Assembly (NCBI GenBank): GCA_002269645.1
Contig: NIVC01000515.1
Span: forward strand, 1 to 34,237
Length of the DNA stretch: 34,237 bases
Direction: 5' to 3'
DNA from: Macrostomum lignano
Lineage: Eukaryota
Of this stretch, positions 1 through 31,590 are shown piece by piece. The notes beneath the pieces are model-generated. The model was not told the DNA's origin and ran no database searches. It saw only the letters and a list, made by a program, of their open reading frames with translations. A program made the translations under genes and the position numbers. Position 1 is the first letter of the stretch. Every line of letters begins with the position of its first letter.

Positions 1-1
1 G

Positions 2-130
2 GTGAACGAGTTCATCGATTTTCTGCAGCAGAAAAAGCTTAATGTTCGCTTTCCGCTGTTGGTAAATCAGTTAAGAAGAAAATGGCAACCAGCAGAGGGG
101 GTGAACTGGAGAAAGAACAGGAGAGTCTAG
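2..130 (+). CDS. 3' end of an ORF truncated by the window edge (element-associated hypothetical protein)
   Basis: Frame +2 is open from base 2 to TAG at 128-130: VNEFIDFLQQKKLNVRFPLLVNQLRRKWQPAEGVNWRKNRRV*. The F..FL...N.P.L.N..R...W pattern resembles C-termini of Polinton-associated ORFs from memory; not verified. Confidence 0.35.
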   Translation: MNEFIDFLQQKKLNVRFPLLVNQLRRKWQPAEGVNWRKNRRV

Positions 131-180
131 TCAAGGGGTACGGAGCAACACAGCCTGGCTGAAATTGCCTGCCAGAAAAG

Positions 181-187
181 TATATAA
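181..187 (+). promoter_or_regulatory. Candidate TATA box (TATATAA) upstream of the ATG 229 ORF
   Basis: Consensus TATAWAA in an otherwise balanced-composition intergenic gap, 41 nt before the ATG. Confidence 0.45.
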
Positions 188-228
188 GAAGGTGACTGAC
201 TCCGAAATTTTCGAAGGAAAGCTGCATC

Positions 229-669
229 ATGAACTACATTGACTTCAAGGATTCCCGTGCAACAGCACAAGCAAAAATTTGTTGTGAAGGAGTTGGCAGT
301 TGTTCAAATCAGAGCGGGGAGCTACCACATTGCTCACCATGTGTACGCACCTCCGTATCCATGGGAGAGAGTCTCACCTGACATGCGAGTTTACTACAGA
401 CAGCTATCTAAGAGTCTGCACCAGTTTAAGTGGAATGATGGAACCCGTCCGTACATGGAACTGGCGGAAGACATTCTGAGCATTGCCAGTGGTCCGATCT
501 GGTCAAATGGGGAAAGGAAGTCGATTTTTCTGACTGAGCTGCTTGGAAGACAGGTTTATAACCTAGAAGATTTGGGAGCACCTCGACTGAAGATTCAGAT
601 ACTGGCTGTGCAGTGAGAAATTCGTTGCTGCACACTACAGTTGGCTTAAGCCAAAGTTCTGCATCAACT
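229..669 (+). pseudogene. Small RNase H-like/DEDD-type putative nuclease of Polinton-associated type, interrupted by single-base frameshifts
   Basis: ATG 229 reads MNYID in frame 1, QGF in frame 3 (246-254), then frame 2 ...KFVVKELAV...YAPPYPW...HQFKWNDG..PY...NGERKSIFL..LL...VYNLEDLGAP, then CAVRN in frame 1 (607-621). TATATAA lies at 181-187. Pseudogene versus sequencing error cannot be decided here. Confidence 0.55.
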
Positions 670-747
670 TAAGAAGCGAGCAGTGTCCGTGGCACACGAG
701 CAGTAAAGTTGGCAGAAGCAGATTTGGTGAAGAAGTTGACGATCGAA

Positions 748-1320
748 ATGAGCCCACCAGCTACAGCCCTAAGAGTGACCAATCTGGTTGGCGGAGTAGA
801 TCTGAGACTGGATGGTGGCAGGGGCGCTCAGCTGCCTCTACGGGAACTGGCTCTCAGCATGGCTCATGTGATCTACCGGCCCGTCTGGCCCCGGGTGCTC
901 ATCAAGCGGATGCGGATTCCCAGAGTGACTCTCCTACTCTACCCTACTGGGCAACTGAGCATCTGCGGTGCCAAGACCCACGCAGACGCCAAAAGGGCTG
1001 CCCGTCGCTTCGTGGCTATGCTGCATCGGAGAGTGCCGGCTCAACTGCTGCCTCATCAAACAATTTGTGTTCGAATTAAAACTATTACTGCTCATGGACA
1101 GCTCCCAGTTCATTCCGCACTTTCCTTATTAATGTTAAAATCAATTATCCCAAACGCCGAATATGAACCAGAATCCTTTTCTGCTTTAATTTTCAATTTA
1201 AACTTTTGTAAATGTCTGCTTTTTCACAGCGGCTCTTTTGTTCTCAGTGGAGCTCGGTCCTTGAATCAGTTGCATACCGATAGCATGCGTCTACTCAATG
1301 TAGTTCTTTCCATTGAATAA
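748..1320 (+). CDS. Divergent TATA-binding-protein (TBP)-like protein, intronless, core only (~190 aa; first ATG 748, ORF track starts at TTG 709)
   Basis: Two TBP half-repeats: VTNLVGGVDL...YRP...IKRMRIPRVTLLLYPTGQLSICGAK...AARRF and IKTITAHGQL...YEPESFSALIF...LLFHSGSFVLSGAR. These correspond to canonical NIVAT..L/PRTTALIFSSGK.V.TGAK and YEPELFPGLIY/LLIF.SGK.VLTGAK. AATAAA directly at and after the stop. Confidence 0.85.
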   Translation: MSPPATALRVTNLVGGVDLRLDGGRGAQLPLRELALSMAHVIYRPVWPRVLIKRMRIPRVTLLLYPTGQLSICGAKTHADAKRAARRFVAMLHRRVPAQLLPHQTICVRIKTITAHGQLPVHSALSLLMLKSIIPNAEYEPESFSALIFNLNFCKCLLFHSGSFVLSGARSLNQLHTDSMRLLNVVLSIE

Positions 1321-1902
1321 AAATAAAGTCAAGTCAAGCAATTTGCCGCAAATATTTCAATGATTAGTGAAAAGTGAATAAAAGGATAAACTTGGTATTC
1401 TTTACATTCATTTTCCCAGGCAGACAGCTATGGAACACTTCAAAAACGTATTTAGCCCATCACCAAAAGTATCGCAAAACGCATATCAAATCCGAAAGTA
1501 AACAATACTACCATCGTTATAACAAACGATGTGCACCGAGAGAAGAGAAATAGAAAAGTGATAGAGAAAATATGATTAAAACGCTGATTGAATTTACAGG
1601 AACAATTTGTGTCAGATAAAAACCAAAAACACATTTTAAACAAGTAGTACACAAAGCAAACAAAAATGAATTAATATTGTATGAGCGCACTTGCCACACA
1701 GCTTTATAAAAAGTAAAACTTAAATTGATATCAATATTTCACGCCGCAAAAACAAATTGACAGCTAAATCTAGCGCAATTAGCCAAGCATACAAATTTGT
1801 AAAAGTTACTACATGCAAGTCACTACATTTAAAACAGAATTTGGCAATTTAAACAACTCTAAAAGCAAGAAAAAGTACTAAACAGTCTGTTAAACACCCG
1901 CA

Positions 1903-4900
1903 CTAGACCAGTCGGATGCGCTTCAGCTGATCGTGGGATGCGGGCGTCAGCGCATAGTGTCCGTAGGGCAGGCTTCGATTACTGCTAAGCCACACTCGCT
2001 TATCCTCCCACACCGATAGGCTTCTTTTCTCCATGACCGACGTGAAGATTTCGTGTTTCTTGGAAACAATCGCTGTCATGGCAACCATCTGCTCTTGCTT
2101 GGACTCGAACGCGTCGACATAGTTCGCATGCGAAATTTGCTGTCTTACTACTGACTGCTTCACGCCTTTGGCAGTTTTCTTGATCTTTGCACTCGAATTC
2201 TCGGCAGGGAGAAACGAATAAAGTTTTGGACGCAAAAGAATCCACTCCTGGTAAATTCCACCAGCAGATTCATCTTTAACGCAGCCCAGCTTTCCTTTTA
2301 ACTCTTCAGAGAAATGCGGATGGTCTCGAGAATAGTTGGATGTGTCAAGTATTTTTTCCTCTCTAAGCTTCGGGATTACCTCCGATGTTAAATCATGATT
2401 CTTGAAAGCTAGAAAAAATGAGTCAGTATCACCTCCGCAAAGCATCATGTCTCTGGAACCGTCTGAATGACAGAACAGCGGTCGGAGCCTGTCATATAGT
2501 AGGCTGTACATGGCCATCTTAGAGAGATCGAGAACTGCCTGGCCAACGAAAATGGCCTTGTCAAGCGTGACTTTATCTTTTTTGAGCTGAAAAATGCTCA
2601 ACGACTCATTGATAATCGAGAATGCGGCACAGTTTGGTCGAGAGGCGCAAGTTTCTGCTTGAGTCTGGTTAGTGCAAATTCGAACATCGCATCTTTTTCG
2701 AACGTTCTCCATAGTTTTTCCAAAGAGAGAATTGTTTTTCAATTTGTAAAAATCCTTAGCAAACTCGGAAGTTGCCAAAGCTCTTTTTTCATTGTTGCTG
2801 GCAATGTACGGCGCGAAAATATTTTCCTGCTTGAACGAAATCATTTTTTTGACGCACTTGATCCGCATTCCGTGTTGCAGGTAAAATCTTAAAACGGTGC
2901 TGTGAACTACGTAAGAATCCTTGTCGGTACAGGTGAGTAGAAGCTTCTCCGTTGCTTGAAACTTAGCTTCAGCATTGCCAGTTCGCTGTTCAGCAATCTC
3001 TTTCCATAGTTCGGCCATGTACGGCGAGAATTGATCTGGCTGTGGTTTTGATTTTTCAGGTGCAAACGGTAACTCCTGAGTCGAATCGTGAATCTCAGCT
3101 GGGTATTCTAGATCGAGTTGAACAAGGTAGGCGATCTCGGCTTCTGGATTGAGTGACAGAAACCGATTGGAGTCCCAGAACTGGATTTCCTGTTCCGGTA
3201 CCCACCTGAATTCCCTGCATGGAAGCGGAAGCGACAGGGCAAAGCCATACAAGTTGTTCATATCGATCGGCATGAGGCTTACACTCTCTTGCTGATCATC
3301 ATAACCTGGCAAGCTAGGATTATTACCTTTGACGCAATGCACATTAATGAAGGACATGCCTCCTCGTATTCCCTTCTCAAACAGATGATACATGTCAGCA
3401 TCAGTCAGCTGCTCTAGAACCACTCCAGTCGACTTTAGAGCTGAGTCGTAAGACAAACCAGGAGTAGTAAAGTAGTGTACCGGATCCAATCCGTCCTCTT
3501 TCAGACTGGCCTGTCGGAATGTCTCGAAAATGTCAGCCAGCTGCCTTACATCCATTTCAAGATAGGCGAGCATATAATCCTTCAAACTTTTGCATTGAAA
3601 TGCCGCCCATGCCGCTCTTGCTCTATTGTAGTCGTCGTCGGAAATTCCCCGATCGGAAAGTCGATTAAAAAAAGCATCTTTAGGCGGCAAAACCGACTGC
3701 TCGAGAATCTCAAATCCTGTGAGGTAATCATATGGGAAAATCCCTTTTTTTCGAAGTAGCTCTCTTGAAAGATGTGGTCTTGACTCAAGCATTTGCATTG
3801 TCAGCTTGCATTCAGCTTCGGGAAGATTAGCAAACAAATTGGACAAACTTCCCTTCAAAAAGCAGAGCGAGTCGATGAACTGAATTGTAAACATGATTGG
3901 CACAACTTTTCCGTTCTTTACGTAACTTGCAACAGGGAATTCCGCCCTTAGTGACAAGTATCGCTCGGATGATTGCGGAACAACACTAAGTTTCCAATTT
4001 TTCATGCTCCCAAGCGCAGTGGAAAGTAGAAGATGAAGGTCGTAGCCGCCTAAGTTGTGAAAAACCAGGGGCAGAAACCGGCGTCGGAGCTGTGCTCGCA
4101 GGTTGCATTCTTGACATGCTGCACCTTTGTACTGTCCATTTAAATGATCGTGGTCAAAATGTTTATCTGTAGAACTTTTAAAGTTCTTCTTGCAGTAGTG
4201 ACATACCTCAGCAGAATTGAAATCATCCATGACGGTCGCGGATGATCGGTCAGCCGGCTGGTGGCTATGCTTCTGGTTCCAGTGAAATATATCCTGAGCC
4301 AGGCTTTCAAGAGATTTGAGAAAACCAAGGATACACTCATCAGGGTCCGCATTGCAAAAGACCTTGTACATGTCTCCTTCTGGCCTAAGCGGAGGTCCTG
4401 TCATGCCTTCACGAGGCACTGCAAGAAAAGCTGCTGCACATGGTTCATGCTTTGAGATCAGGTTAGCAGGGTCTGTGTTCGCTCGCAAAATGGCTTCCAG
4501 GTCGGCATAGGCAACGAATGGTGGACTGACAGTGTTTTGACAGTTTCGGAACTTTATTTCATTCTGTCCTGGAACTGGAAGCGTTTCTTTGACAGGATTT
4601 TCTGCAGTAATGCTGCATTCGTTCCTGTGCTCTTGAAGCCTCTCGTTGCTATAAAATGATGTTAAACATTTCGTGCACCACTTCCTCATGGCGGGACCAT
4701 TACGACTGTTCATTAACCTGTCAAAATTAGTAATTGCACACCAGTGCTCCGATCCGTAGCTGTCTTTAACTAGCAAAAGCATGAGGTGTCTTCGGTCATC
4801 TGACTCATGCTTGCGGCGACGGAGAAGAGTCACACTGCCCTGCTGCCAAGAGAACGCAGAAATGCAAATTCCTGGATTGTTAGACTCGACGCGATCGATA

Positions 4901-5361
4901 TCAGCGACACTCACTGGCATGGAGATTTCTGCAAAGTCCAGCTCACGCAACCATTCATCGTAAGAGGATATTCTGTTGGGCGATTTCTGAACTTTCGGAT
5001 CGGCGCTGTGCAGTGCAGCGAGACAGGCGTACAGGAAACAGTCTTTGCCTGTGCTCGGTGGATTGATAACAGCCTTTTTGTTCTTCAAACTGGCAGGAAG
5101 ATTGAATCTAACGGCTCTGCCCTGGCGAAATCGAATTGGATTGTACCTGGCAAGGTTGATGTCTAGAAAATTAATTTGTTTAATTGTCCAGCCACTGCCG
5201 TTCGTATTAATCATACTACAGATCCTCTCCAACTCCTGCTCCTGCTCAATCAACCAGTTGTTTAAACGGCCTGCTTCACCACCTAGGTCTAGGGCCTGCA
5301 TTTTACAGCTTATCCATCTGTCCTCTTCGGCAAGCATCTCCCCATCTCTTATTCGGACCAT
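1903..5361 (-). CDS. polB: Family B DNA polymerase, Polinton/protein-primed type, with C2H2-like finger and endonuclease VII-like insertion (frame open upstream to 5565; true start probably further 5')
   Basis: ExoI YADLE, ExoII FHNLGGYD, IDS, KGIFPYDY, ExoIII YLEMDV, Pol A DMNNLYG, Pol B KLKNNSLFGK, Pol C DTDS, PKLY and KGV. Long insertions between A-B and B-C fit TPR1/TPR2. CxxC...DHDH...CxxCN at 4203-4102. Uninterrupted 1152 codons. Confidence 0.95.
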   Translation of the reverse strand: MVRIRDGEMLAEEDRWISCKMQALDLGGEAGRLNNWLIEQEQELERICSMINTNGSGWTIKQINFLDINLARYNPIRFRQGRAVRFNLPASLKNKKAVINPPSTGKDCFLYACLAALHSADPKVQKSPNRISSYDEWLRELDFAEISMPVSVADIDRVESNNPGICISAFSWQQGSVTLLRRRKHESDDRRHLMLLLVKDSYGSEHWCAITNFDRLMNSRNGPAMRKWCTKCLTSFYSNERLQEHRNECSITAENPVKETLPVPGQNEIKFRNCQNTVSPPFVAYADLEAILRANTDPANLISKHEPCAAAFLAVPREGMTGPPLRPEGDMYKVFCNADPDECILGFLKSLESLAQDIFHWNQKHSHQPADRSSATVMDDFNSAEVCHYCKKNFKSSTDKHFDHDHLNGQYKGAACQECNLRAQLRRRFLPLVFHNLGGYDLHLLLSTALGSMKNWKLSVVPQSSERYLSLRAEFPVASYVKNGKVVPIMFTIQFIDSLCFLKGSLSNLFANLPEAECKLTMQMLESRPHLSRELLRKKGIFPYDYLTGFEILEQSVLPPKDAFFNRLSDRGISDDDYNRARAAWAAFQCKSLKDYMLAYLEMDVRQLADIFETFRQASLKEDGLDPVHYFTTPGLSYDSALKSTGVVLEQLTDADMYHLFEKGIRGGMSFINVHCVKGNNPSLPGYDDQQESVSLMPIDMNNLYGFALSLPLPCREFRWVPEQEIQFWDSNRFLSLNPEAEIAYLVQLDLEYPAEIHDSTQELPFAPEKSKPQPDQFSPYMAELWKEIAEQRTGNAEAKFQATEKLLLTCTDKDSYVVHSTVLRFYLQHGMRIKCVKKMISFKQENIFAPYIASNNEKRALATSEFAKDFYKLKNNSLFGKTMENVRKRCDVRICTNQTQAETCASRPNCAAFSIINESLSIFQLKKDKVTLDKAIFVGQAVLDLSKMAMYSLLYDRLRPLFCHSDGSRDMMLCGGDTDSFFLAFKNHDLTSEVIPKLREEKILDTSNYSRDHPHFSEELKGKLGCVKDESAGGIYQEWILLRPKLYSFLPAENSSAKIKKTAKGVKQSVVRQQISHANYVDAFESKQEQMVAMTAIVSKKHEIFTSVMEKRSLSVWEDKRVWLSSNRSLPYGHYALTPASHDQLKRIRLV

Positions 5362-5784
5362 TCGAATATTCGCCTTTAGCTGAACTTTGTAATGATGTCT
5401 TGAAATTCTTTGCTGAACTGCCTCAATAATTTTGTCTCCAGCTTGGACAAAAAATTCTGACGGAAGCGTGTCTGGGTGACTCGATCTGAGCCTCAGTATT
5501 TCCAGTGATTGATCATAGGCTTGGGCAACTCTGCTGAAGCTGACTGTTGAACCTGGTTTGTGGTTTTAGGATAATATTTTTGTTTTTTGCTGCCTATAGT
5601 TTCAAATATCAAAGATACTAAACTAAACGTCTGTACCCAAGCATACATGTACAACCCTACCGGTATAAAGTCTTTTATCTCCCCTTCTCCCATTCTTTGG
5701 ACTAAAATTTTAGACTGCATAATATACATCGCATTGATAAGAAAATTTTTAAGTAAGTTGAAAAGGATAAATAAAGGCACTTAC

Positions 5785-6181
5785 CTTGGTGTGCATCAGT
5801 CACCGACTCGCTGTTGGCTGCTGACTCGCTGCTGGCTGCTGACTCGCTGCTGGCTGCTGACTCGCTGCTGGCTGCTGACTCGCTGCTGGCTGCTGACTCG
5901 CTGCTGGCTGCTGACTCGCTGCTGGCTGCCGACTCGCTGCTGGCTGCCGACTCGCTGCTGGCTGCCGACTCGCTGCTGGCTGCTGACTCGCTGCTGACGT
6001 CATGGTCCACCCAAGGGTGGTCATACTCGATCCACGAGTGGTCATCCTCCATCCACGAGTGGCCATTCTCCATCCATGAGTGGTCATTCTCCATCCATGA
6101 GTGGTCATTCTCCATCCATGAGTGGTCATTCTCCATCCATGAGTGGTCATTCTCCTGCTCCATCCAGGAGTGCTCAACCAT
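5785..6181 (-). CDS. Putative first exon of a repeat-rich protein, (DHSWMEN)n plus (SSESAA)n; possibly the spliced N-terminus of polB
   Basis: ATG at 6181 followed by in-frame 21-bp and 18-bp repeats, then CAAG|GTAAGT donor at 5784-5779 (phase 1). A phase-1 acceptor ACTATAG|G is at 5595-5594. Confidence 0.45.
5803..5997. repeat. 18-bp tandem repeat (gctgctgactcgctgctg), about 10 copies, in ORF
   Basis: Directly visible. Confidence 0.95.
6005..6175. repeat. 21-bp tandem repeat (tccatccatgagtggtcattc), about 8 copies, in ORF
   Basis: Directly visible. Confidence 0.9.
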
Positions 6182-7065
6182 AGAAAAGGCAAGCAGTTAA
6201 AAGCTGACAGTGTTTACTGGCTGCAACTGAGTGTCATAAGCAACTGGGAGTGAATATTTGAAATCTTTTTTCGTAAGTCTTTATTGCTGCAATACTGGTA
6301 CAATATCCACACTTACAAGCTAGTAGATGCTGGTTATATTTTTTTGGTTCTCCCTTAAGCTAGCTCTCTGCATGCATATTCTATTGATCCCTATTCGTAA
6401 AAGTTCGTTTCTATTTGCCTCCTACGCAGACTCAATCGGTAAAAAATGCAAAATGAAGCCAATAGTTAATTAACAAACCAATCACCGAGTGGAAAAATGC
6501 TGACATTATATATATATTTTTTAAAAAAATATCGAATTCACATGGTGCAATCATAGTCAATAAACAATGCATGGAACAATGAATTACAAATACAGACGAG
6601 AGTTTAGAAGCAGAAATATAGCTGAAAAGTTCAATAATTAAAGAATGAGGAAACACCGCATCAAAGCAGTAGAAAGAAAATTATACCTAATCAATCGCAC
6701 CAAGCATACGAAACCATCACCAATTTATTGAAAGTATGTTATGTTGATTTTAATTTGTTAAATTCAACTGTATAATGTTTCACCTACTTTTCAAATAATT
6801 TTTTTTTACCTCGGATACCAAAAAAATATTGGTTGCCACTACGAGCTACGAGCTTTTTTTAAAACTAATTTGGAAATGAAAACTGAAAACTTATAAGCAA
6901 GATTCCTAGAAGCGAATACAGAGTTATGAGATGATCAAATCATTAATTAATGAACCTACTTTCAACTTTAAAAAGCTAGTTGAAATAAAGTTTTAGCAAT
7001 AATTGCAATAAATGGGTAGATTTCTCACTCCACACAGAAAGCAAAAAAGTACAAAAATTGCTTAG

Positions 7066-8439
7066 TCACAGCGGCACAATTCTAATACGATTTTCGAAAA
7101 TCGTTACCTCGTACCCAGCCCCGCCGACAGGAGGCAGAAAGAAGGCAACTCCAGCTGGCACGGGTGGAGTTTCGGATTGAGAAGCTGGAATTGTAGAGGC
7201 TGCAGCTGGGGCGGCTGGAGCAGCTGGGGCAGCCAGAGCAGCTGGGGCGGCCAGAGCAGCTGGGGCGGCTGGAGCAGCTGGGGCGGCCAGAGCAGCTGGG
7301 GCGGCTGGAGCAGCTGGGGCAGCCAGAGCAGCTGGGGCGGCCAGAGCAGCTGGGGCGGCCAGAGCAGCTGGGGCGGCCAGAGCAGCTGGGGCGGCCAGAG
7401 CAGCTGGGGCGGCTGGAGCAGCTGGGGCGGCCAGAGCAGCTGGGGCGGCCAGAGCAGCTGGGGCGGCCAGAGCAGCTGGGGCGGACAGAGCAGCTGGGGC
7501 GGACAGAGCAGCTGGGGCGGCCAGAGCAGCTGGGGCGGCCAGAGCAGCTGGGGCGGCTGGAGCAGCTGGGGCGGCCAGAGCAGCTGGGGCGGCTGGAGCA
7601 GCTGGGGCGGCCAGAGCAGCTGGGGCGGCCAGAGCAGCTGGGGCGGCCAGAGCAGCTGGGGCGGCCAGAGCAGCTGGGGCGGCCAGAGCAGCTGGGGCGG
7701 CTGGAGCTGCAGGTGGCACAATTGCATTATGCGACTCATTGTCGCTGCCCTCCTCTTCTAGGATTTCCATTTCGTGGTCGTCTTCAATTAGATGAAGTTG
7801 TTTTCCAGCAATCACCGGAACCGAAGAGACAGGTTGCTGCTGCTGCTGCTGCTGACCAGCGTTGAATTCCCTGAGGAACTGATCCAGGACATCTTCCTCT
7901 ATGAAGTTTATGACAGCAGCAGCCTCGACTCCAGCAGCCTCGACTCCAGCAGCCTCGACTCCAGCGGCCTCGACTCCAGCAGCCTCGACTCCAGCAGCCT
8001 CGACTCCAGCAGCCTCGACTCCAGCAGACAGCTCAACTTCAAATTCTGCAGCTGCTGAAGACCCGCTTGGCCTCATCCTCTTCAATGTAGAGTCAATTAC
8101 TTGACTCAAGTGAGCTGATAGCAGACTCCTGCTGGCTCCCTTTTTCTGCTGGCTCTTCTTTTCTCTCTCGTTGCTCTTTTTGATGGCGCGGATTACTTTC
8201 CAGCGGTTACTTTCTTGCTTTTTCTTGTCATCGCTGACGATCTTGTGTCCTCGATGATATGCTGGAATTTTTCCCTCCTGCAGAGCTTCGACGGTGCCGC
8301 ACTGGTCGCATGCCAACCAGCATGAGACCAGACAGTTCTCATTCTCGTGGTGTCTTGGGGACACGCCTCCAAGCAGGCACACTTCGCAGCTTATACAGAC
8401 CTCATAGAGGTCTCTATGACAACTTTTAAAAGTTTTCAT
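7066..8439 (-). CDS. Hypothetical protein (457 aa): Cys/His-rich N-terminus, basic segment, (VEAAG)n, polyQ, acidic patch, (AAPAAL)n repeat
   Basis: ATG in good context (TCAAAATGA) with TATAAAA about 52 nt upstream. Unique non-repetitive termini. Internal repeat units of 15 and 18 bp keep the frame. Same strand as polB, intronless. Confidence 0.7.
   Translation of the reverse strand: MKTFKSCHRDLYEVCISCEVCLLGGVSPRHHENENCLVSCWLACDQCGTVEALQEGKIPAYHRGHKIVSDDKKKQESNRWKVIRAIKKSNEREKKSQQKKGASRSLLSAHLSQVIDSTLKRMRPSGSSAAAEFEVELSAGVEAAGVEAAGVEAAGVEAAGVEAAGVEAAGVEAAAVINFIEEDVLDQFLREFNAGQQQQQQQPVSSVPVIAGKQLHLIEDDHEMEILEEEGSDNESHNAIVPPAAPAAPAALAAPAALAAPAALAAPAALAAPAALAAPAAPAAPAALAAPAAPAAPAALAAPAALAAPAALSAPAALSAPAALAAPAALAAPAALAAPAAPAAPAALAAPAALAAPAALAAPAALAAPAALAAPAAPAAPAALAAPAAPAAPAALAAPAALAAPAAPAAPAAASTIPASQSETPPVPAGVAFFLPPVGGAGYEVTIFENRIRIVPL
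7195..7712. repeat. 18-bp coding tandem repeat (gcagctggggcggccaga / ...ggctgga), about 28 copies
   Basis: Directly visible; encodes AAPAAL/AAPAAP on the minus strand. Confidence 0.95.
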
Positions 8440-8490
8440 TTTGAAAGAGAAAGAGTTGTTTTTTAGAAGTAGTAAGGTTTTTAAAAATCC

Positions 8491-8497
8491 TTTTATA
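8491..8497 (-). promoter_or_regulatory. Candidate TATA box (TATAAAA) upstream of the 457-aa ORF
   Basis: Consensus TATAAAA on the minus strand about 52 nt before ATG 8439. A second TATATAA is at 8548-8542. The region is AT-rich, so chance is possible. Confidence 0.4.
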
Positions 8498-8739
8498 CAA
8501 TTTGTTTTTGTCTATTTGTTTATTTGTACTTGCGTGGCTGCTTATATAGTAATTTGTACATGCATGCCCTCTCCTTATCATATCGTATATGAACATCCAG
8601 CCATGCTCAGGTAATAATTACTTTACCGTTATAGAGGCCACTGGCTGTAATTAGTGTATCCCCCCGTCCCCTTATCCAGGTAAGCAACACCAGCCGTCCT
8701 CTGTGCAGTTGTAAAACTTTATAACCTTACCCTAACACA

Positions 8740-9300
8740 GAGCACAGAGATTGGCCACCCCTCTTATCTCTGCAATGTTTAGCCGTTCCCAATGCACAGA
8801 GATAGGATCCTCTCCGCAGTGTATTTTTCCTATATCCTTTTTGCCGCCTATCTCGCCAGCGCTAGTGCGGCAGTATCATGAATCGCCTCTATCTCCGCAG
8901 TGCTTAGCCGTCCCCAATGCACAGAGATAGAGCTCATATCTCTGCAGTGCTTAGCCGTCCCCAATGCACAGAGATAGAGCTCATATCTCTGCAGTGCTTA
9001 GCCGTCCCCAATGCACAGAGATAGAGCTCATATCTCTGCAGTGCTTAGCCGTCCCCAATGCACAGAGATAGAGCTCATATCTCTGCAGTGCTTAGCCGTC
9101 CCCAATGCACAGAGATAGAGCTCATATCTCTGCAGTGCTTAGCCGTCCCCAATGCACAGAGATAGAGCTCATATCTCTGCAGTGCTTAGCCGTCCCCAAT
9201 GCACAGAGATAGGGCTCATATCTCCGCAGTGTATTTTTCCCTATACATTTGCATTGCCGCCTATCTCGCCAGTGCTAGTGCGGCAGTATCATAATTCGCC
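8740..9300. repeat. 47-bp palindrome-containing tandem array (7 full copies from 8897) plus a duplicated ~75-bp tail; probable subterminal/TIR repeats
   Basis: Unit gcagtgcttagccgtccccaatgcacagagatagagctcatatctct starts at 8897, 8944, 8991, 9038, 9085, 9132 and 9179. The tail at 8816-8889 recurs at 9226-9302. Confidence 0.9.
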
Positions 9301-9817
9301 CTACTACTCTCTATCTTATCTTCTTCCACCCCTCTGTCAAAACGGCTCTTCAAGTGCCACACTTTATACACAGTGGATTGGTTTCCTATACTCAGCAGAG
9401 CTCAAACTCGCAATATCGCACCATATTCCAGCTAGTAGACAGAATGTCCGACAATAAAATTTTATCCAGCTCCCGGCGGATTAATGGACTGGCCGGGCAG
9501 ACATGGGAGCGTCTGCAACCAGCCAAGACTGCTTTCTCGCATGCGGTAGATATTCAGAGGGCTATAAATAGACTGATAGCATTTGTCAGGGAACTGACCT
9601 TGCCGCGGTAAATTGGATGAAAGTTATGGACGGGACTGTCAAATTAGTGCAAAAATTGGCGAAGATTAATTGGTGCACTGTTTTGCACTAATAAATCATA
9701 TATTTATATTAGATGTGCCTTGGATTGGCTTCATCACTGCCGTTGCTGGCTTCACCTTTGCACTGCAATGTTGTTAGAATAATTTGAAATGGGTGATTGC
9801 GGACCGTTCGGGTTTGG

Positions 9818-20936: not shown

Positions 20937-21320
20937 ATGGCAATCAGTCTGCTGTTATTGTGGCTCCTGCTTCAATTGCAAATCACTGCTGCTGCTGCTG
21001 CGGCCAGCAACATCGGCTCGTCCAGAGGGGCCGCTGCGGCGGCCGCCGCTGCGTCGTCGGGTCGTCATCAGGACGGCTCCGGTGGCGAGCTCGGCGGCGG
21101 CGGAGGCTCAGGCCGGCTGGCATCGATGACGGACGGTGGCGGCGGCATGGGGCGCCTGTGCACGGATCACTGCTCGGAAGGGTTGCGCAATTGCTCAGCT
21201 GAGCAGCGGGCCAAGGAGACACTGCTGTGCGGCTATGATCGGACGTCCAGACCGGTGCTGCAGGAGGATAGCCAGATTCGTGTGCACATCGCTGTGGCTC
21301 TGTTTCATATTCTGGACGCG
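20937..21320 (+). CDS. Nicotinic acetylcholine receptor alpha-type subunit, exon 1 of 5
   Basis: Signal peptide MAISLLLLWLLLQLQITAA. AEQRAKETLLCGYDRTSRPV...IRVHIAVALFHILDA matches the Cys-loop receptor N-terminus. Donor GCG|GTGAGC at 21321 (phase 0). Confidence 0.85.
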
Positions 21321-21404
21321 GTGAGCCTTTGATTCTGAGCGTTTGACTCACCTATCGAAAGTTGAAGATAAGATTGGTCTTTCCTGGGCTTATGAGTGGG
21401 GGAG

Positions 21405-22045
21405 TGAAGGTTTATGGCTCTCAGATCTAAGATAATCGATAAAAGAGTGAAGGTTTATGCTCTCAGGTCAAAGATGAGTGATAAGAGATTGAAGGTTTAT
21501 GGCTTTCAGATCTAAGATAATCGATAAAAGAGTGAAGGTTTATGGCTCTCAGGTCTAACTGATAAGAGAGTGGGGGTTTTGGTTCCCTGGTCTAAGATAA
21601 GAGATAAGGGAGTGAGGGTTTATGGCTCTCAATTCTAAGATAAGAGATAAGAGAGTGGGGGGGGTTATGGCTCTCATGTCTAACTGATAAGAGAGTGGGG
21701 GTTTATGGTTCCCTGGTCTAAGATAATCGATAAAAGAGTGAAGGTTTATGGCTCTCAGGTCTAACTAATAAGAAAGTGGGGGTTTATGGTTCTCTGGTCT
21801 AAGATAAGAGATAAGAGAGTGAGGGTTTATGGCTCTCAATTCTAAGATAAGAGATAAGAGAGTGGGGGGGGGTTATGGCTCTCATGTCTAACTGATAAGA
21901 GAGTGGGGGTTTATGGTTCCCTGGTCTAAGATAATCGATAAAAGAGTGAAGGTTTATGGCTCTCAGGTCTAACTAATAAGAAAGTGGGGGTTTATGGTTC
22001 TCTGGTCTAAGATAAGAGATAAGAGAGTGAGGGTTTATGGCTCTC
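21405..22045. repeat. ~40-bp intronic minisatellite with ~208-bp higher-order duplication
   Basis: Units such as taagataatcgataaaagagtgaaggtttatggctctcaggtc; the block starting at 21721 recurs at 21929. Confidence 0.85.
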
Positions 22046-22656
22046 GGTTGTTTTTCTTTGCTGTTTAAACGTGCGCCAGTACATTTTCCCCCACTTCGTT
22101 TAACTTTTTGGAACGACAAAAATTTAAAGCGCATACGAGCACAACAGCAGACGAGAGAAAATCCAAAAATTCACCCAACCTGCTTCGCATGGCAACCGGG
22201 CCAATTTCCTGTCCGAATCTACAATTACACACTCGCAAGCGAAAGGGGAAGGAATGCGATAGACAGATGCTCCCCTCCCCGGCTAAGCGAGAGTTGCAAA
22301 ACTTCCCAACCCAGAGAGAAACGCTGCTTCGGGATCATAGGTGGGATTTTTGGATTTGACAAAATTTTGTTACGAATTCTCCTAGGCAGAGGAAAATTGC
22401 ATTAAATTCTGGATGCAGCGTTGCTTTGCTCGCATTAATGCGAAAAAGAGAGAAGGAAACAGACAGACAAACAGACAAAACTCTACTGGGATGGAGGGGA
22501 GAGTTTTGAGGGAACTCAAAACACAGTCCAGCTGAAGCTTTAGGAATAATCCGTAGAATATTGAGCAGCAACTGAATGCTGGAGGCTGACTCGGAAGGAT
22601 TCCTGTAGATTAATGTAAGAGGCCTGAAGCTTATTGTGGACGATTTCAAGCTTTTT

Positions 22657-22882
22657 GTAGAGAGCCCGAAGCCTACTATAGAGACCCTGAATATTACTGT
22701 CGAGAGCCTGAAGCCTACTATAGAGACCCTGAATATTACTGTCGAGAGCCTGAAGCCTACTATAGAGACCCTGAATATTACTGTCGAGAGCCTGAAGCCT
22801 ACTATAGAGACCCTGAATATTACTGTAGAGAGCCTGAAGCCTACTATAGAGACCCTGAATATTACTGTAGAGAGCCTGAAGT
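22657..22882. repeat. 42-bp intronic minisatellite (gagagcctgaagcctactatagagaccctgaatattactgtc), 5 copies with degenerate flanks
   Basis: Directly visible; the unit is a diverged dimer of 21 bp. Confidence 0.9.
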
Positions 22883-23241
22883 TTGCTGTGGAAATCCTGA
22901 AGTTTAATGTAGAAAGCCTGAAGCTTGCCGCTGAGAGCCTGAAGTTTTCTTTAGGTTCCTGAAGTTTACTGTAGAGAGGCTGAAGAGCCTGAAACGTTTT
23001 AGAGAGCCTGAAGCTCAAATAAGACTTGAATTTTTGTTCAAAATTTCTAAAGCGAAACTATCCTTCCATCCGTTGCGACAACCCTGAGGGCCTGAAACTA
23101 GTTATAGACAGCCTGATGTCTTGAAGTGAAACTTGATGAAGTGTCTCAATCCTTAGATTACATCGTTTCAAATGCTAGCTTAGAATAACTTTATACGTAG
23201 CTAACAGAGGTGCTAAATATTTTAATTGCAAAACACTTCAG

Positions 23242-23286
23242 GACGAAAAGCATCAAACTTTGACGATACTGCTGTCAATCCGATTG
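23242..23286 (+). CDS. nAChR alpha-type subunit, exon 2 of 5 (45 bp; missed by the ORF track)
   Basis: CTTCAG|GAC GAA AAG CAT CAA ACT TTG ACG ATA CTG CTG TCA ATC CGA TTG|GTAATT encodes DEKHQTLTILLSIRL, the DEKNQ.LT segment of nAChRs; phase 0/0. Confidence 0.85.
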
Positions 23287-23378
23287 GTAATTGATGATTT
23301 CGAATCACTTTTCTGGCACATGTTTTATTGCAACCGGCCCGCGAGTACTTTACCGATTTTGTACACGCTTATTTTCAG

Positions 23379-23488
23379 CGGTGGACAGACGAACACCTGA
23401 TTTGGCTGCCGGACGAGTTCAATGGCACCCAGTCCATACATATCCCATCTGGCTCGATATGGACTCCTGATATTGTCATCTCCAACAG
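23379..23488 (+). CDS. nAChR alpha-type subunit, exon 3 of 5
   Basis: ATTTTCAG| RWTDEHLIWLPDEFNGTQSIHIPSGSIWTPDIVISN AG|GTGCGT (phase 0/2); W.D..L.W and IW.PDI motifs. Confidence 0.9.
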
Positions 23489-23494
23489 GTGCGT

Positions 23495-23837
<343 letters not shown>

Positions 23838-24460
23838 CTACAGTGAGTAGAGCTTGACAGTAGAGGGTCAGCATATTTACTAAGTTATGCTTACTAACCT
23901 ATTCGGTACAATCCAATTTCGGGCCCCAGAAAGCTTTCAGCAGCATCAGTTGAATCCAATCAGTTTTTCAGCTTCAGCGATCCGACAAAATTGGCTCGGA
24001 TCGGCGGTCAAAGAAATGAATTGATTAAAACTGGCTGCCCACTAGAATTTTGGAGGGCAGGCTTTGGTAAAAAATAAATAGCAGGGTGGGCCAACGCTTG
24101 GCGTCTGCGTGTCTCTGTGGCTGCGACTCCTTCAATCTTGGCTTAAAATTTTCCCGATTTAAAAGTACAAAGTATTAAACATAAAATGAATTACATTAAC
24201 CCGTTCAATTTCATTATTCGTTTCAATTGTTTGCCTTGGCTTTACAAAAATTCGCATTCGCGGAGAGAGAAATGCCTTGAGGCGATGCTTTGGGATTGGA
24301 AATTCTGAATAATTGGAGCTTGAAAAACAATGAATGCGCGGAATTCATTGTTGCCATTATCGACTGATGAGATCGAGGAATCGAGGGCCTGACTGCTGGC
24401 CTTCTCGCTGATTTATGGCAACTAAACTGAAGCCTACTGCTGGCACTAATCCTTAGCTGC

Positions 24461-24772
24461 CAAGGACCGCTGTAGCATAACAGGATCAAGGACCACTGTA
24501 GCATAACAGGATCAAGGACCACTGTAGTATAACAGGATCAAGGACCACTGTAGCATAACAGGATCAAGGACCGCTGTAGTATAACAGGATCAAGGACCAC
24601 TGTAGCATAACAGGATCAAGGACCACTGTAGCATAACAGGATCAAGGACCACTGTAGTATAACAGGATCAAGGACCACTGTAGTATAACAGGATCAGGGA
24701 CCACTGTAGTATAACAGGATCAAGGACCACTGTAGTAAAACAGGATCAAGAACCGCTGTAGTATGACAGGAT
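24461..24772. repeat. 26-bp minisatellite, left arm (12 copies; ataacaggatcaaggaccactgtagc/t)
   Basis: Period 26; reverse complement of the array at 24930-27055. Confidence 0.95.
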
Positions 24773-24929
24773 AATTAAAGAAATGGTAATTTTAACTCAC
24801 CCAAATCAAATGCAGTCATTGATTTTGTGATGTAAAAAATGTTTCTTATCTCGCAGTGTCTTTTTTTTCCAGGATATTTGGCCTCCAAAAAATCGCAAAA
24901 TCTTTGAGTTTTGAGTTGCACCTCGTACG

Positions 24930-27055
24930 TCCTGTATACTACAGTGGTCCTTGATCCTGTTATACTACAGTGGTCCTTGATCCTGTTATACTACAGCGGT
25001 CCTTGATCCTGTTATACTACAGTGGTCCTTGATCCTGTTATACTACAGCGGTCCTTGATCCTGTTATACTACAGTGGTCCTTGATCCTGTTATACTACAG
25101 CGGTCCTTGATCCTGTTATGCTACAGTGGTCCTTGATCCTGTTATACTACAGTGGTCCTTGATCCTGTTATACTACAGTGGTTCTTGATCCTGTTATACT
25201 ACAGTGGTCCTTGATCCTGTTATGCTACAGTGGTCCTTGATCCTGTTATGCTACAGTGGTCCTTGATCCTGTTATGCTACAGCGGTCCTTGATCCTGTTA
25301 TACTACAGTGGTCCTTGATCCTGTTATACTACAGTGGTCCTTGATCCTGTTATGCTACAGTGGTCCTTGATCCTGTTATACTACAGTGGTTCTTGATTCT
25401 GTTATACTACAGTGGTCCTTGATCCTGTTATACTACAGTGGTCCTTGATCCTGTTATACTACAGTGGTCCTTGATCCTGTTATACTACAGTGGTCCTTGA
25501 TCCTGTTATGCTACGGTGGTCCTTGATCCTGTTATACTACAGTGGTCCGTGATCCTGTTATACTACAGTGGTCCTTGATCCTGTTATACTACAGTGGTCC
25601 TTGATCCTGTTATGCTACAGTGGTCCTTGATCCTGTTATACTACAGTGGTCCTTGATCCTGTTATACTACAGCGGCCCTTGATCCTGTTATGCTACAGTG
25701 GTCCTTGATCCTGTTATGCTACAGTGGTCCTTGATCCTGTTATGCTACAGTGGTCCTTGATCCTGTTATGCTACAGTGGTCCTTGATCCTGCTATACTAC
25801 AGCGGTCCTTGATCCTGTTATGCTACAGTGGTCCTTGATCCTGCTATACTACAGCGGTCCTTGATCCTGTTATGCTACAGTGGTCCTTGATCCTGTTATG
25901 CTACAGTGGTCCTTGATCCTGTTATGCTACAGTGGTCCGTGATCCTGTTATGCTACAGTGGTCCTTGATCCTGTTATGCTACAGTGGTTCTTGATCCTGT
26001 TATACTACAGTGGTCCTTGATCCTGTTATGCTACAGTGGTCCTTGATCCTGTTATACTACAGTGGTCCTTGATCCTGTTATACTACAGTGGTCCTTGATC
26101 CTGTTATGCTACAGTGGTCCTTGATCCTGTTATACTACAGTGGTCCTTGATCCTGTTATGCTACAGTGGTTCTTGATCCTGTTATGCTACAGTGGTCCTT
26201 GATCCTGTTATGCTACAGTGGTTCTTGATCCTGTTATGCTACAGTGGTCCTTGATCCTGTTATGCTACAGTGGTCCTTGATCCTGTTATGCTACAGTGGT
26301 CCTTGATCCTGTTATACTACAGTGGTCCTTGATCCTGTTATACTACAGTGGTTCTTGATCCTGTTATGCTACAGTGGTCCTTGATCCTGTTATGCTACAG
26401 TGGTCTTGATCCTGTTATGCTACAGTGGTCCTTGATCCTGTTATGCTACAGTGGTTCTTGATCCTGTTATGCTACAGTGGTCCTTGATCCTGTTATGCTA
26501 CAGTGGTCCTTGATCCTGTTATGCTACAGTGGTCTTGATCCTGTTATGCTACAGTGGTCCTTGATCCTGTTATGCTACAGTGGTCTTGATCCTGTTATGC
26601 TACAGTGGTCCTTGATCCTGTTATGCTACAGTGGTCCTTGATCCTGTTATGCTACAGTGGTCCTTGATCCTGTTATACTACAGTGGTCCTTGATCCTGTT
26701 ATGCTACAGTGGTCCTTGATCCTGTTATGCTACAGTGGTCCTTGATCCTGTTATGCTACAGTGGTCCTTGATCCTGTTATGCTACAGTGGTCCTTGATCC
26801 TGTTATGCTACAGTGGTTCTTGATCCTGTTATGCTACAGTGGTCCTTGATCCTGTTATGCTACAGTGGTTCCTTGATCCTGTTATGCTACAGTGGTCCTT
26901 GATCCTGTTATGCTACAGTGGTCCTTGATCCTGTTATGCTACAGTGGTCCTTGATCCTGTTATACTACAGTGGTCTTGATCCTGCTACAGTGGTCCTTGA
27001 TCCTGTTATGCTACAGTGGTCCTTGATCCTGTTATGCTACAGTGGTCCTTGATCC
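24930..27055. repeat. 26-bp minisatellite, right arm (about 82 copies; gctacagtggtccttgatcctgttat)
   Basis: Directly visible; inverted relative to 24461-24772. Confidence 0.97.
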
Positions 27056-27072
27056 CTAATCTCCCATTGCAG

Positions 27073-27614
27073 CGCAGACGACAGTAACAAACGCTTCGCC
27101 AGCACAAACATTGTTGTTCAGCACAACGGCTCCGTGCTGTGGATGTTCCCAGCCCTGGTGAAGGTCACCTGCAACTTGGCTGTCAAGTATTTCCCATTCG
27201 ACTCGCAGCGCTGCAATGTCACCTTCATCAGCTGGACTTATCACCTGTACCAGGTGGACCTGTGGCACGACGAATCAGTGGACGCCAACAGAAACTACTT
27301 CTCGGAGGCCAGTCAAGAGTGGAATGTGACCAGCATAGCCTATTCCCGCTCTACCGGGGTGTACGCCTGCTGCAGTGAGCCCTGGCCGGACATCACCATC
27401 ACCATCGACATGACTCGACGATCACTGTTCTACGTGTTGAACCTGGTGTTCCCCTGCGCCCTGATGTACCTTACCAGTTGGCTCGGCTTCTTCTTGCCCG
27501 CCGAGTCTGGCGAGAAAGTCAACTTGGAGCTGACCATCCTGCTGGCTCTGGTGGTGTTCCTCATGATTGTTGGCGACACTCTGCCGCCTACACCCGATGC
27601 CATTCCGCTTGTGG
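27073..27614 (+). CDS. nAChR alpha-type subunit, exon 4 of 5 (Cys-loop, loops B and C, M1, M2)
   Basis: CTAATCTCCCATTGCAG| acceptor (phase 2). Cys-loop CNLAVKYFPFDSQRC, SWTY, vicinal cysteines YACCSEPWPD, M1 RRSLFYVLNLVFPC, PAESGEK and M2. Donor GTGG|GTGAGT at 27615 (phase 1). Loop C resembles alpha9/alpha10-type sequences. Confidence 0.95.
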
Positions 27615-27699
27615 GTGAGTAAGGGGATGCTGGGGATGAGGCTGGGCGAATTGCTGGGGGATTTTAGTGCTTAACCCTTGTAGAATGGGATTTAAATGC

Positions 27700-28920
27700 T
27701 TAAGGATGTGTTTGGATATTTTCAAGGGGATTTGGATGTTTAGGATGGGATTTGATGCTAATGATGGGATTTGGATGTTTAGGGTGAGATTTGGATATTT
27801 AGGATGGGATCTGGATATTTAGGATAGTATTAGAATATTTAGGGTGGGATCTAACTGTTTAGGATGGGATCTAACTGTTTAGGATGGGATCTAACTGTTT
27901 AGGATGGGATCTAACTGTTTAGGATGGGATCTAACTGTTTAGGATGGGATCTAACTGTTTAGGATGGGATCTAACTGTTTAGGATGGGATCTAACTGTTT
28001 AGGATGGGATCTAACTGTTTAGGATGGGATCTAACTGTTTAGGATGGGATCTAACTGTTTAGGATGGGATCCGAATGCCTAGGATGGGAGTTGAATGCTT
28101 GGGATGGGATCTGGATGCTTAGGATGGGATTTGTATGTTTAGGATGGGATCTGGATATTTAGGATGGTATTAGAATATTTAGGGTGGGATCTAACTGTTT
28201 AGGATTGGATCTAACTGTTTAGGATGGGATCTGAATGCTTAGGATGGGATCTGCATGCTTAGGGTGGGATCTGAATGCCTAGGATGGGAGTTGAATGCTT
28301 GGGATGGGATCTGGATGCTTAGGATGGGATTTGTATGTTTAGGATGGGATCTGGATATTTAGGATGGTATTAGAATATTTAGGGTGGGATCTAACTGTTT
28401 AGGATTGGATCTAACTGTTTAGGATGGGATCTGAATGCTTAGGATGGGATCTGCATGCTTAGGGTGGGATCTGAATGCCTAGGATGGGAGTTGAATGCTT
28501 GGGATGGGATCTGGATGCTTAGGATGGGATTTGTATGTTTAGGATGGGATCTGGATATTTAGGATGGTATTAGAATATTTAGGGTGGGATCTAACTGTTT
28601 AGGATTGGATCTAACTGTTTAGGATGGGATCTGAATGCTTAGGATGGGATCTACATGCTTAGGGTGGGATCTGAATGCCTAGGATGGGAGTTGAATGTTT
28701 AGGATGGGATCTGGATATTTAGGATGGGATCTGGATGCTTAGGATGGGATCTGAATGCCTAGGATGGGATCTGGATGCTTAGGATGGGATCTGGATATTT
28801 AGGATGGGATCTGGATGCTTAGAATGGGATCTGGATATTTAGGATGGGATCTGGATATTCAGGATGGGATTTTTATGTCTAGGATGGGATCTAGATATTT
28901 GGGATTAGGATGGGATTTTA
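27700..28920. repeat. 20-bp intronic minisatellite (aggatgggatctaactgttt) with a 200-bp higher-order repeat
   Basis: The marker variant aggatgggagttgaatg recurs at 28081, 28281, 28481 and 28681. Confidence 0.95.
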
Positions 28921-29419
28921 ATGCTTTTTAGGGATTTTTAGGATGGTTTCAGACGGTTTGGGACTGATTAGGACTTGGAAACTAGAATTGGCGTTGAAGT
29001 ATTTGAGTAGTGATATCATTACAATGAATATCGACTGTGATGTTTATTAAGCGTATCAAAAATGGTAATACTTGAGCCAAAAACGGTACAGCTCGAAGCA
29101 AATTGCCATGTCCCCCAGCTTCTCACCTGAGTATTCGAAGTAGCTCAGCATTGATGCAAAAACTCCTTGGAGCGAAGCAACGACTGAGCACTACTACTCA
29201 TAGTTATCAAGACGGGCTTGACTACACACTGGCTACTTGTTGGCCTATAGAAGAACTCTGAAAAAGAAATTGCAGCCCGTTCAACTATACTGACTATGGT
29301 TTGAATAATAATCTTTGTTTACAGTACGAGATTTATAATAATTCAATTTATTTTCTTAGAATACATGCATGATTATTTCTCAATATCTCACTTTGCTGTG
29401 TTTGGCTAGAAGCTCTGAT

Positions 29420-30980
29420 CTCTGGAGAGGGGAGAGAAGAGAGAAGAGATGAGAGAAAAGAGAGGAGAGGGAGAGAGGAGAGAAGAGAAGAGAGAAGATA
29501 GGAGAGAAAAGAGAGGAGAGGGGAGAGTGGAGAGAGGAGAGTGGAGAGAGGAGAGAAGAGAAGATAGAAGAGATGAGACGGGGAGAGGAGAAGGGAGAGA
29601 GGAGAGAAGAGAAGAGAGAAGAGATGAGAGGGGGAGAGGAGAGGGGAGAGAGGAGAGAAGAGAAGATAGAAGAGATGAGACGGGGAGAGGAGTAGGGAGA
29701 GAGGAGAGAAGAGAAGAGAGAAGAGATGAGAGGGGGGAGAGGAGAGGGGAGAGAGGAGAGAAGAAAAGAGAGAAGATAGGAGAGAAAAGAGAGGAGAGGG
29801 GAGAGTGGAGAGAGGAGAGTGGAGAGAGGAGAGAAGAGAAGATAGAAGAGATGAGAGGGGGGAGAGGAGAGGGGAGAGAGGAGAGAAGAGAAGAGAGAAG
29901 AGATGAGAGAAAAGAGAGGAGAGGGGAGAGTGGAGAGAGGAGAGGGGAGCGAGGAGAGAAGAGAAGATAGAAGAGATGAGAGGGGGGAGAGGAGAGGGGA
30001 GAGAGGAGAGAAGAGAAGATAGAAGAGAGGAGAGAAAAGAGAGGAGAGGGAGTCAGAGAGTGGAGAGAGGAGAGTGGAGAGAGGAGAGAAGAGAAGATAG
30101 AAGAGATGAGACGGGGAGAGGAGAAGGGAGAGAGGAGAGAAGAGAAGAGAGAAGAGATGAGAGGGGAGAGGAGAGGGGAGAGAGGAGAGAAGAGAAGATA
30201 GAAGAGATGAGACGGGGAGAGGAGAAGGGAGAGAGGAGAGAAGAGAAGAGAGAAGAGATGAGAGGGGGAGAGGAGAGGGGAGAGAGGAGAGAAGAAAAGA
30301 GAGAAGATAGGAGAGAAAAGAGAGGAGAGAGAGTGGAGAGAGGAGAGTGGAGAGAGGAGAGAAGAGAAGATAGAAGAGATGAGACGGGGAGAGGAGAGGG
30401 GAGAGAGGAGAGAAGAGAAGAGAGGAGAGGGGAGAGTGGAGAGAGGAGAGTGGAGAGAGGAGAGAAGAGAAGATAGAAGAGATGAGACGGGGAGAGGAGA
30501 AGGGAGAGAGGAGAGAAGAGAAGAGAGAAGAGATGAGAGGGGGGAGAGGAGAGGGGAGAGAGGAGAGAAGAAAAGAGAGAAGATAGGAGAGAAAAGAGAG
30601 GAGAGGGGAGAGTGGAGAGAGGAGAGTGGAGAGAGGAGAGAAGAGAAGATAGAAGAGATGAGACGGGGAGAGGAGAAGGGAGAGAGGAGAGAAGAGAAGA
30701 GAGAAGAGATGAGAGGGGGGAGGGAGAGGGGAGAGAGGAGAGAGGAGAGTGGAGAGAGGAGAGAAGAGAAGATAGAAGAGATGAGACGGGGAGAGGAGAG
30801 GGGAGAGAGGAGAGAAGAGAAGCGAGAAGATAGGAGAAAAAAGAGAGGAGAGGGAGAGTGGAGAGAAGAGATGACAGGGGACAAAAGAGAGAAGAGAGGA
30901 GAGGGGAAGAGAGGATAGGGAGAGGGGAGAGAGGAGAGAAGAGAGCTGAGAGAAGAGAGCTGAGAGAAGAGAGCTGAAAA
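29420..30980. repeat. GA-rich homopurine complex satellite (intronic)
   Basis: Directly visible. Confidence 0.95.
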
Positions 30981-31147
30981 GAGCTCAACAAACCTTGAGC
31001 GGGCCGGATTGCTATTGTGAAGTTTCAAGGGACCCGAGGGCCGGATAGAGAGGCTTTGCGGGCTGCATGTGGCCAGTGGGCTGGAGTCTGCCGACCTCTG
31101 GCATGCTAACAAATAAAATAACAAAGTACACCCTGCACTTCAAACAG

Positions 31148-31590
31148 GTCTACTCTTCGGCTCCACAATGCTAATGGTATCTCTGGCTCTCCTGATGGCC
31201 GTCGCAGTGACCAATATTCACGTGAGAAAGTTCACCCGCTCAACTGGTCGAGTGCCCGACTGTCTCCGCCGCTACGTGTCCAGATTTCACTGTCAGCAAA
31301 GCTGTCGCTACCGGCGACGCCCAAGACGCAAGGAGCAACAGCCGGCAGTTGTTAGAGAACTGGGCAGCGATGAAGCAGAGATGGCTGGGGATAGCGTTGC
31401 CAGAGGCAAGCCGCGAGGAGGACTGCATAAGGAAGAATTGAGCAGCTGCCTGTGCAGCAGCCCAGAAGCGTGGGTTGCTCTGGCCAGATCGGCTGACAGA
31501 ATTCTGTTCTGGCTGTTCTTGGCCATCAGCGGTGTGGCGATAAGCGTTATTTATCAGAGCGTGCCCAGCAGTGCGCTGAATTTTAAATAA
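31148..31590 (+). CDS. nAChR alpha-type subunit, exon 5 of 5 (M3, loop, M4)
   Basis: CAAACAG|GT (phase 1, G+GT = Gly). M3 LLFGSTMLMVSLALLMAVAVTNIH; WVALARSADRILFWLF M4; TAA at 31588-31590. The five exons sum to 1524 nt, or 507 aa plus stop. Confidence 0.9.

Follow-up and report, generated by a model that had tools for sequence, protein, structure and literature searches.

A divergent TATA-binding protein encoded by Polintons of the flatworm Macrostomum lignano and a candidate promoter box

Introduction

Why should a Polinton carry a gene for TATA-binding protein (TBP), and what would the protein do there? The question is raised by a stretch of 34,237 nucleotides from the flatworm Macrostomum lignano (assembly GCA_002269645.1, contig NIVC01000515.1, positions 1 to 34,237 of the forward strand), called the window below. 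A sequence-only reading had proposed a Polinton-like element at 1..9312, in which an intronless core-only TBP-fold gene (748-1320) converges on a Polinton-type DNA polymerase. It placed TBP outside the canonical Polinton gene set and suggested that the element supplies or rewires the initiation factor, either to express its own genes or to compete with host TBP. The proposal would be undermined if the TBP gene lay outside the element boundaries, were absent from other copies, or were a recent retrocopy of host TBP.

Here we report that window 1-9308 is the right half of a capsid-encoding Polinton of about 16.7 kb, recently multiplied in the M. lignano genome, and that TBP is a fixed gene of two animal Polinton families. 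Judged from residues and upstream sequences, the element TBP probably acts as a herpesvirus-like late-gene switch, reading a CTTAAGAA box and recruiting host RNA polymerase II. Sources given by PMC number are represented by excerpts, to which the statements citing them refer.

Results

The TBP gene (748..1320, + strand) is intronless, encodes a divergent core-only protein of 190 aa, and converges on the gene for a protein-primed family B DNA polymerase (PolB; 1903..5361, - strand). Both repeats of the Pfam TBP family (PF00352) were matched at E 7.9e-25, and the best solved-structure match had E 2.1e-18. A structural model, made from an alignment that included canonical TBPs, reached a predicted local distance difference test (pLDDT) value of 95 and matched solved TBPs at a template modelling (TM) score of 0.83 (E 2.6e-14). 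Pfam, the model and the structure match all gave the two-repeat saddle fold. The protein was 99% identical to a M. lignano database entry. PolB matched PF03175 above cut-off at 47 bits. The convergent TBP-PolB pair was just as first read from the sequence.

The residues of the element TBP were compared with those of host TBP in two element families, A (that of the window) and B (described below). Both keep the C-terminal Phe pair, the first Asn and the EPE stirrup. The N-terminal Phe pair is changed in both, one residue being lost and one replaced by Tyr, which leaves two of the four intercalating Phe; the second Asn is Thr, which leaves one of two Asn; the Pro after the third Phe is Ser or Asn; and a repeat-1 Val is Ser. 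The element TBP therefore lacks the complete canonical TATA-binding set of four Phe, two Asn and first-base Pro. The Val change could, we assume from known structures, admit G at position 6 of the box. The basic charge is kept (+14 in family A, +15 in host TBP), as are the stirrup acids E140 and E142, invariant in 8/8 aligned element-type TBPs. According to PMC12529657, this Pro biases the first TATA position towards T, and the acids of the stirrup make contact with TFIIB.

To which DNA does this gene belong? When genome contigs were searched with the TBP query (150 of 231 candidates scored), at least 152 matches were found; 25 of these, the window included, were 100% identical. Assembly duplicates are among them. 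The gene lay among other element genes in all 34 of the TBP-centred neighbourhoods fetched. Family B, with elements of 11-11.7 kb, has a gene order rearranged relative to family A, with PolB first and PC4 facing TBP; its TBP is 37% identical to that of family A and stands behind the same MAEL-like gene. The gene is thus present across copies and in a second family, and it is neither outside the element nor missing from its other copies. Capsid-centred neighbourhoods had TBP in 2/10 cases (family B); the other eight were truncated or decayed and also without MAEL-like and PolB matches.

A third Polinton family, C, was observed in the same genome. Its copy C1304 (L138-L141) is 16,055 bp long and has 1.1-kb inverted repeats and a different gene set. 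TBP was absent from 5/5 family C neighbourhoods by tblastn and hidden Markov model searches, the PolB being about 30% identical. Family C gave no TBP, PC4 or MAEL-like match, and its genes have T-rich then A-rich leaders instead.

The ratio of nonsynonymous to synonymous substitution (dN/dS) for TBP was 0.12-0.39 overall in 21 pairs of family A subfamilies, indicating purifying selection; codons 1-110 gave 0.09-0.27 and the remaining codons 0.07-0.24 (computable in 13 pairs, saturated in 8). With 29% identity between element and host TBP, the gene is no recent retrocopy. A quick tree of 155 rows with long branches placed 9 element rows and 8 relatives in one clade (Shimodaira-Hasegawa-like approximate likelihood ratio 94), apart from host TBP and TRF2. 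Eight short divergent TBPs (P0012, P0039, P0040, P0080, P0083, P0090, P0114 and P0144) adjoined the element clade with modest support, and may be regarded from their sequences as candidate Polinton TBPs of other animals. Host TBP was located at C70, C713 and C1301 and TRF2-like genes at C350, C3090 and C3513, all with intronless cores. Among viral contigs no relatives were found with the element alignment or host TBP as query; metagenome contigs yielded 32 loci at 23-33%, one short 43-93 match included.

The window opens at the first base of its own contig. This copy therefore lacks its left half, which was read in sister copies instead. There the other terminal inverted repeat, the integrase and the capsid genes were found as sought. 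The right terminal inverted repeat (8887..9308, no strand assigned) contains a 47-bp tandem array and ends in ACTACT. Other copies have it in inverted orientation at their left end (C136: 423 bp, 99.3%). The element ends at 9308, not at the proposed 9312. Inverted repeats with AGT-type ends, as in Polintons/Mavericks, are present. Target-site duplications of 6 bp flank C530 and C114 (family A) and C738, C2485 and C1157 (family B); the flanks of C1021, a two-ended copy, do not match, and the window copy has one end only. Among 19 near-identical neighbourhoods plus the window, distinct flanks numbered 10/12 on the left and 11/13 on the right, and both ends were found in five copies, 16.5-16.8 kb apart.

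In family A the gene order is PC4, integrase with chromodomain, putative penton, a 125-aa gene, major capsid protein, protease, ATPase, 112-aa and 230-aa genes, MAEL-like and TBP, followed on the opposite strand by PolB and the 159-aa and 457-aa open reading frames (ORFs). By the features examined, the element is a Polinton/Maverick (adintovirus). Small frameshifts are common among copies; as small indels separate short-read contigs from the assembly, some frame breaks are probably assembly errors.

The subfamilies were observed to be mosaic. Between C530 and C114 or C1113, the core from penton to the N-half of TBP is 89-99% identical, the arms are about 50% identical, and the PolB proteins 46-48%. 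The junctions lie at window ~1099 (TBP codon ~117) and L046 ~3100, with loose ends of read contigs at both. Because one junction falls between the two TBP repeats, the N- and C-halves of TBP reassort.

What might this TBP read? A CTTAAGAA box lies at 668..675 (+), 80 nt before the TBP start, and in full copies also precedes the integrase, penton, capsid, ATPase and 112-aa genes. All 7-mers were ranked in -120..-8 windows of 10 family A core genes. CTTAAGA was the top 7-mer in C906, with 6/6 sites at these places (integrase, penton, capsid, ATPase, 112 aa, TBP; binomial p 1.8e-9, about 3e-5 corrected for 16,384 words). It was also top in the diverged copy C130 (5/5 sites), where neighbouring genes stand at a synonymous divergence (dS) of 0.8-2.9; since C130 shares ancestry with C906, this result is conservation and not an independent draw. 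Three box sites within coding sequence keep TTA-AGA codons in four subfamilies (about 2% expected per Leu-Arg pair). In the TBP-less family C copy, CTTAAGA was upstream of 0/12 genes, with 5 sites elsewhere in the copy. It was absent from the terminal repeats of C530. In family B a degenerate TAAGAA form had 8/8 of its sites on the core strand.

The terminal genes stand behind canonical TATATAA or TATAAAA boxes, at distances like those of the variant box. In the window, a TATATAAG box lies at 8541..8548 (-), about 105 nt before the 457-aa ORF. Another TATATAAG box, at 181..188 (+), 48 nt before the MAEL-like gene, is a candidate promoter that host TBP may read; it is canonical in C906, C1113, C754 and C38 and not in C114, C130, C219 and C84. 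The TBP gene is behind a canonical TATAAAAG in family B and behind the variant box in family A.

The window begins in the 3' end of a conserved 230-aa element ORF of unassigned function (1..200, + strand, end approximate), since the alignment with copy C906 puts base 1 within this ORF. The MAEL-like gene follows at 229..1079 (+); it encodes 278-283 aa in sister copies and is split by small frameshifts in the window copy. It had no Pfam match, and an Atlas lead pointed to Maelstrom at 0.88, rank 23. Over the last 110 codons of the MAEL-like gene (window 748-1079), the TBP gene is read in another frame; the family B overlap is about 129 codons in the same relative frame. The overlap was seen in 23/25 TBP-bearing copies scored, the remaining two being broken there, and the frame is open more often than codon resampling expects (about 1% in each family). 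We do not claim a functional MAEL-like extension over TBP, as it is unremarkable (9-17%) for a frame to remain open over the divergence observed.

Two AATAAA signals at the TBP stop (1316..1327, +) are the likely common 3' end of core transcripts, and in 6/6 copies examined an AATAAA is no more than about 130 nt from that stop. Four read contig sets of guessed RNA type gave even cover, intergenic DNA included, and no joints.

The PolB product (1152 aa, frame open to 5565) also contains an Endonuclease VII-type domain. Its weak PF03175 score fits, as far as the score goes, the Beta adintovirus definition. A repeat-rich 159-aa ORF of unassigned function follows at 5702..6181 (-) and had no Pfam match. 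By eye, a GTAAG splice-donor-like site was spotted inside it at ~5784 (-), which could join it to the PolB frame; that frame is open for 68 codons above its first ATG. The 457-aa ORF (7066..8439, -), with a Cys-rich N-terminus and Ala/Pro repeats, occupies the position where adintoviruses have 'Oncoid' genes, and its N-terminus is 27-39% identical across other subfamilies.

Left-half genes were assigned in sister copies. The integrase of L046 is of retroviral type (PF00665) with a chromodomain. The major capsid protein is a double jelly roll (model pLDDT 85.6), matching PBCV-1, mavirus and Sputnik capsids at E about 1e-14. The cysteine protease is of adenovirus type (PF00770 above cut-off). 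The putative packaging ATPase is a P-loop ORF at the expected place with P-loop family matches all sub-threshold, and a 272-aa ORF without Pfam match is called putative penton from position and size alone. A PC4-like gene occurs in both TBP families at opposite element ends (L046:880-1656, L047:7363-7800); PF02229 scored E 5.5e-8 in L046 and 2.6e-5, just under cut-off, in family B.

Outside the element, window 20937-31590 holds exons of a host ligand-gated ion channel (nicotinic receptor-like; PF02931 and PF02932) amid many tandem repeats.

Discussion

The late-gene switch would work as follows. The terminal genes (PC4 and the 457-aa ORF; PolB in family B), which stand behind canonical TATATAA boxes, would be made first by host TBP, along with some element TBP. 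The latter would in turn recognize the variant box before the integrase, capsid and packaging genes, because Ser or Asn takes the place of the Pro favouring T at position 1 and the DNA contacts of the N-terminal half have changed. By way of the EPE stirrup that it retains, it would recruit host TFIIB and polymerase II; PC4 would assist as co-activator or single-stranded DNA-binding protein, and the AATAAA signals behind TBP would mark the end of nested transcripts. The wider proposal, that animal Polintons of 11-17 kb run their own early-to-late switch with a re-tuned minimal TBP, a private CTTAAGAA box and a PC4 helper, is tentative, and we give it slightly less than even confidence. We hold just as tentatively its component that host TBP reads the CTTAAGAA box poorly.

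Several observations weigh against the switch. The raw count of the box lies within shuffles (6 against a mean of 2.65 and a maximum of 8), so that position alone stands out. CTTAAGA is absent before 4/10 family A core genes in C906, the box-to-ATG distance ranges from 12 to 110 nt, and the ATPase site enters the test window only if the second ATG is used. Stray sites were found in C754 (1/6) and C84 (2/7). The family B signal is weaker, the best 7-mer of C110 (3/3, p 3.8e-5) failing correction, and C738 yielded no 7-mer at three genes. The variant box also precedes the TBP gene itself in family A, and 4/8 family A copies examined have no canonical box further upstream. The family C control is one copy of one family. 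Family B dN/dS for TBP (0-1.18 over 10 pairs) reflects few changes and is uninformative. Finally, the loss of one intercalating Phe and the change of another to Tyr could weaken DNA bending.

The variable spacing would also suit a TBP that is a non-specific initiation booster, the TAAG-containing box being a start-site or RNA-level signal for host factors or a helper virus. Baculovirus late promoters contain a TAAG motif. The herpesvirus protein BcRF1 binds TATA and TATT alike in vitro (PMC4893493). However, the residue changes common to both families are located on the DNA-binding face, the box is AT-rich and of TATA length, and the terminal genes have canonical TATATAA at similar distances; we regard a booster as unlikely. 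As a decoy, the element TBP would soak up host TFIIB or TBP regulators and dampen host transcription while another factor reads the box. An EPE stirrup invariant in 8/8 proteins, yet with half of the DNA-intercalating residues changed, is what a decoy might show. Against this, the C-terminal Phe pair, first Asn and basic charge are kept, and the box goes with TBP, being missing from the TBP-less family, which makes a decoy quite unlikely. For the competition with host TBP that had been suggested, nothing speaks beyond the TFIIB-contact residues; the companion suggestion, self-expression, has sequence support in the box, the control family and the residues.

A role in replication or packaging, rather than in transcription, is another option for the TBP fold, which would bend the termini in concert with PolB and PC4. 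In recombinant subfamilies the PolB arm does travel with the C-terminal half of the TBP gene, and PC4 is a single-stranded DNA-binding fold. But the C530 terminal repeats contain no CTTAAGA, the TFIIB-contact residues are kept, and a related PolB replicates family C in the absence of TBP; this role appears very improbable. That TBP is a recent host retrocopy or a neutral passenger is hardly credible: the absence of introns is compatible with capture, since the host TBP core has none either, but the low identity to host TBP, purifying selection, two deep families and a separate clade all contradict it.

If the wider proposal of a self-run early-to-late switch is correct, the element would hold the smallest known viral TBP-promoter code, one that arose independently of herpesviruses and giant viruses. 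It would offer a natural altered-specificity TBP-box pair, and viral TBP mimicry would extend from large viruses to transposon-sized genomes. The matter bears on the timing of capsid genes in animal Polintons and on whether these elements are still functional as viruses. M. lignano is a laboratory flatworm with transgenesis and RNA interference; the self-encoded TBP and a defined 8-bp box allow a direct assay in it, with the TBP-less family of the same genome as control.

Comparison with known systems

Polintons and adintoviruses share with this element inverted repeats, PolB, rve integrase, double-jelly-roll capsid, adenain-like protease and packaging ATPase, the last putative here (Starrett et al. 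2021, PMC8502044). The Beta class of adintoviruses has a divergent PolB with N-terminal OTU domain, and GasderminX and Cupiennin genes. Starrett et al. label MAEL and SSDBP genes in some animal adintoviruses (Supplementary Fig. S2). Their excerpted text also has a 'TBP' label in the Fig. 5 legend, in a section on non-animal datasets, the element being unnamed in the text. The novelty of a TBP outside the canonical Polinton set is therefore somewhat below what was first claimed. In those excerpts TBP is only a legend label, with no function or promoter box described, whereas here it is fixed in two animal families. Beyond that legend, no description of a Polinton TBP or its promoter was found in the literature covered, which lay outside subscription journals and Repbase.

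Like cellular TBP and TRF2/TLF (PF00352; host C70 and C350), the element TBP has the two-repeat saddle, EPE stirrup and C-terminal Phe pair; it differs in its low identity, in the substitutions of the N-terminal Phe pair, second Asn and Pro, and in not grouping with host TBP/TRF2. TBPs of Nucleocytoviricota and mirusviruses are likewise viral TBP folds (Foldseek best E 1.6e-11 in the viral library; PMC10675990 deals with mirusvirus-like elements), to which the element TBP is 7-20% identical, below the 22-27% to cellular TBPs. In giant viruses TBP comes together with a viral RNA polymerase (PMC11464507), which the element lacks.

The beta- and gammaherpesvirus TBP mimics (BcRF1, ORF24, UL87; PMC4893493, PMC12529657) also have a TBP fold without a viral RNA polymerase, and TATT late promoters place a variant TATA box before structural genes (PMC4893493), as does the element, whose box is known from sequence. 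The mimics are large multidomain proteins that act in a six-member complex and bind polymerase II directly, whereas the element TBP is a bare 190-aa core in a genome of only 11-17 kb. Four Phe and the Pro are present in the mimics, from which the TFIIB-contact acids are missing; the element TBP keeps the acids and has lost the Pro and two Phe. By this analogy, the element likely works like a herpesvirus TBP mimic with its TATT box, without being of that family.

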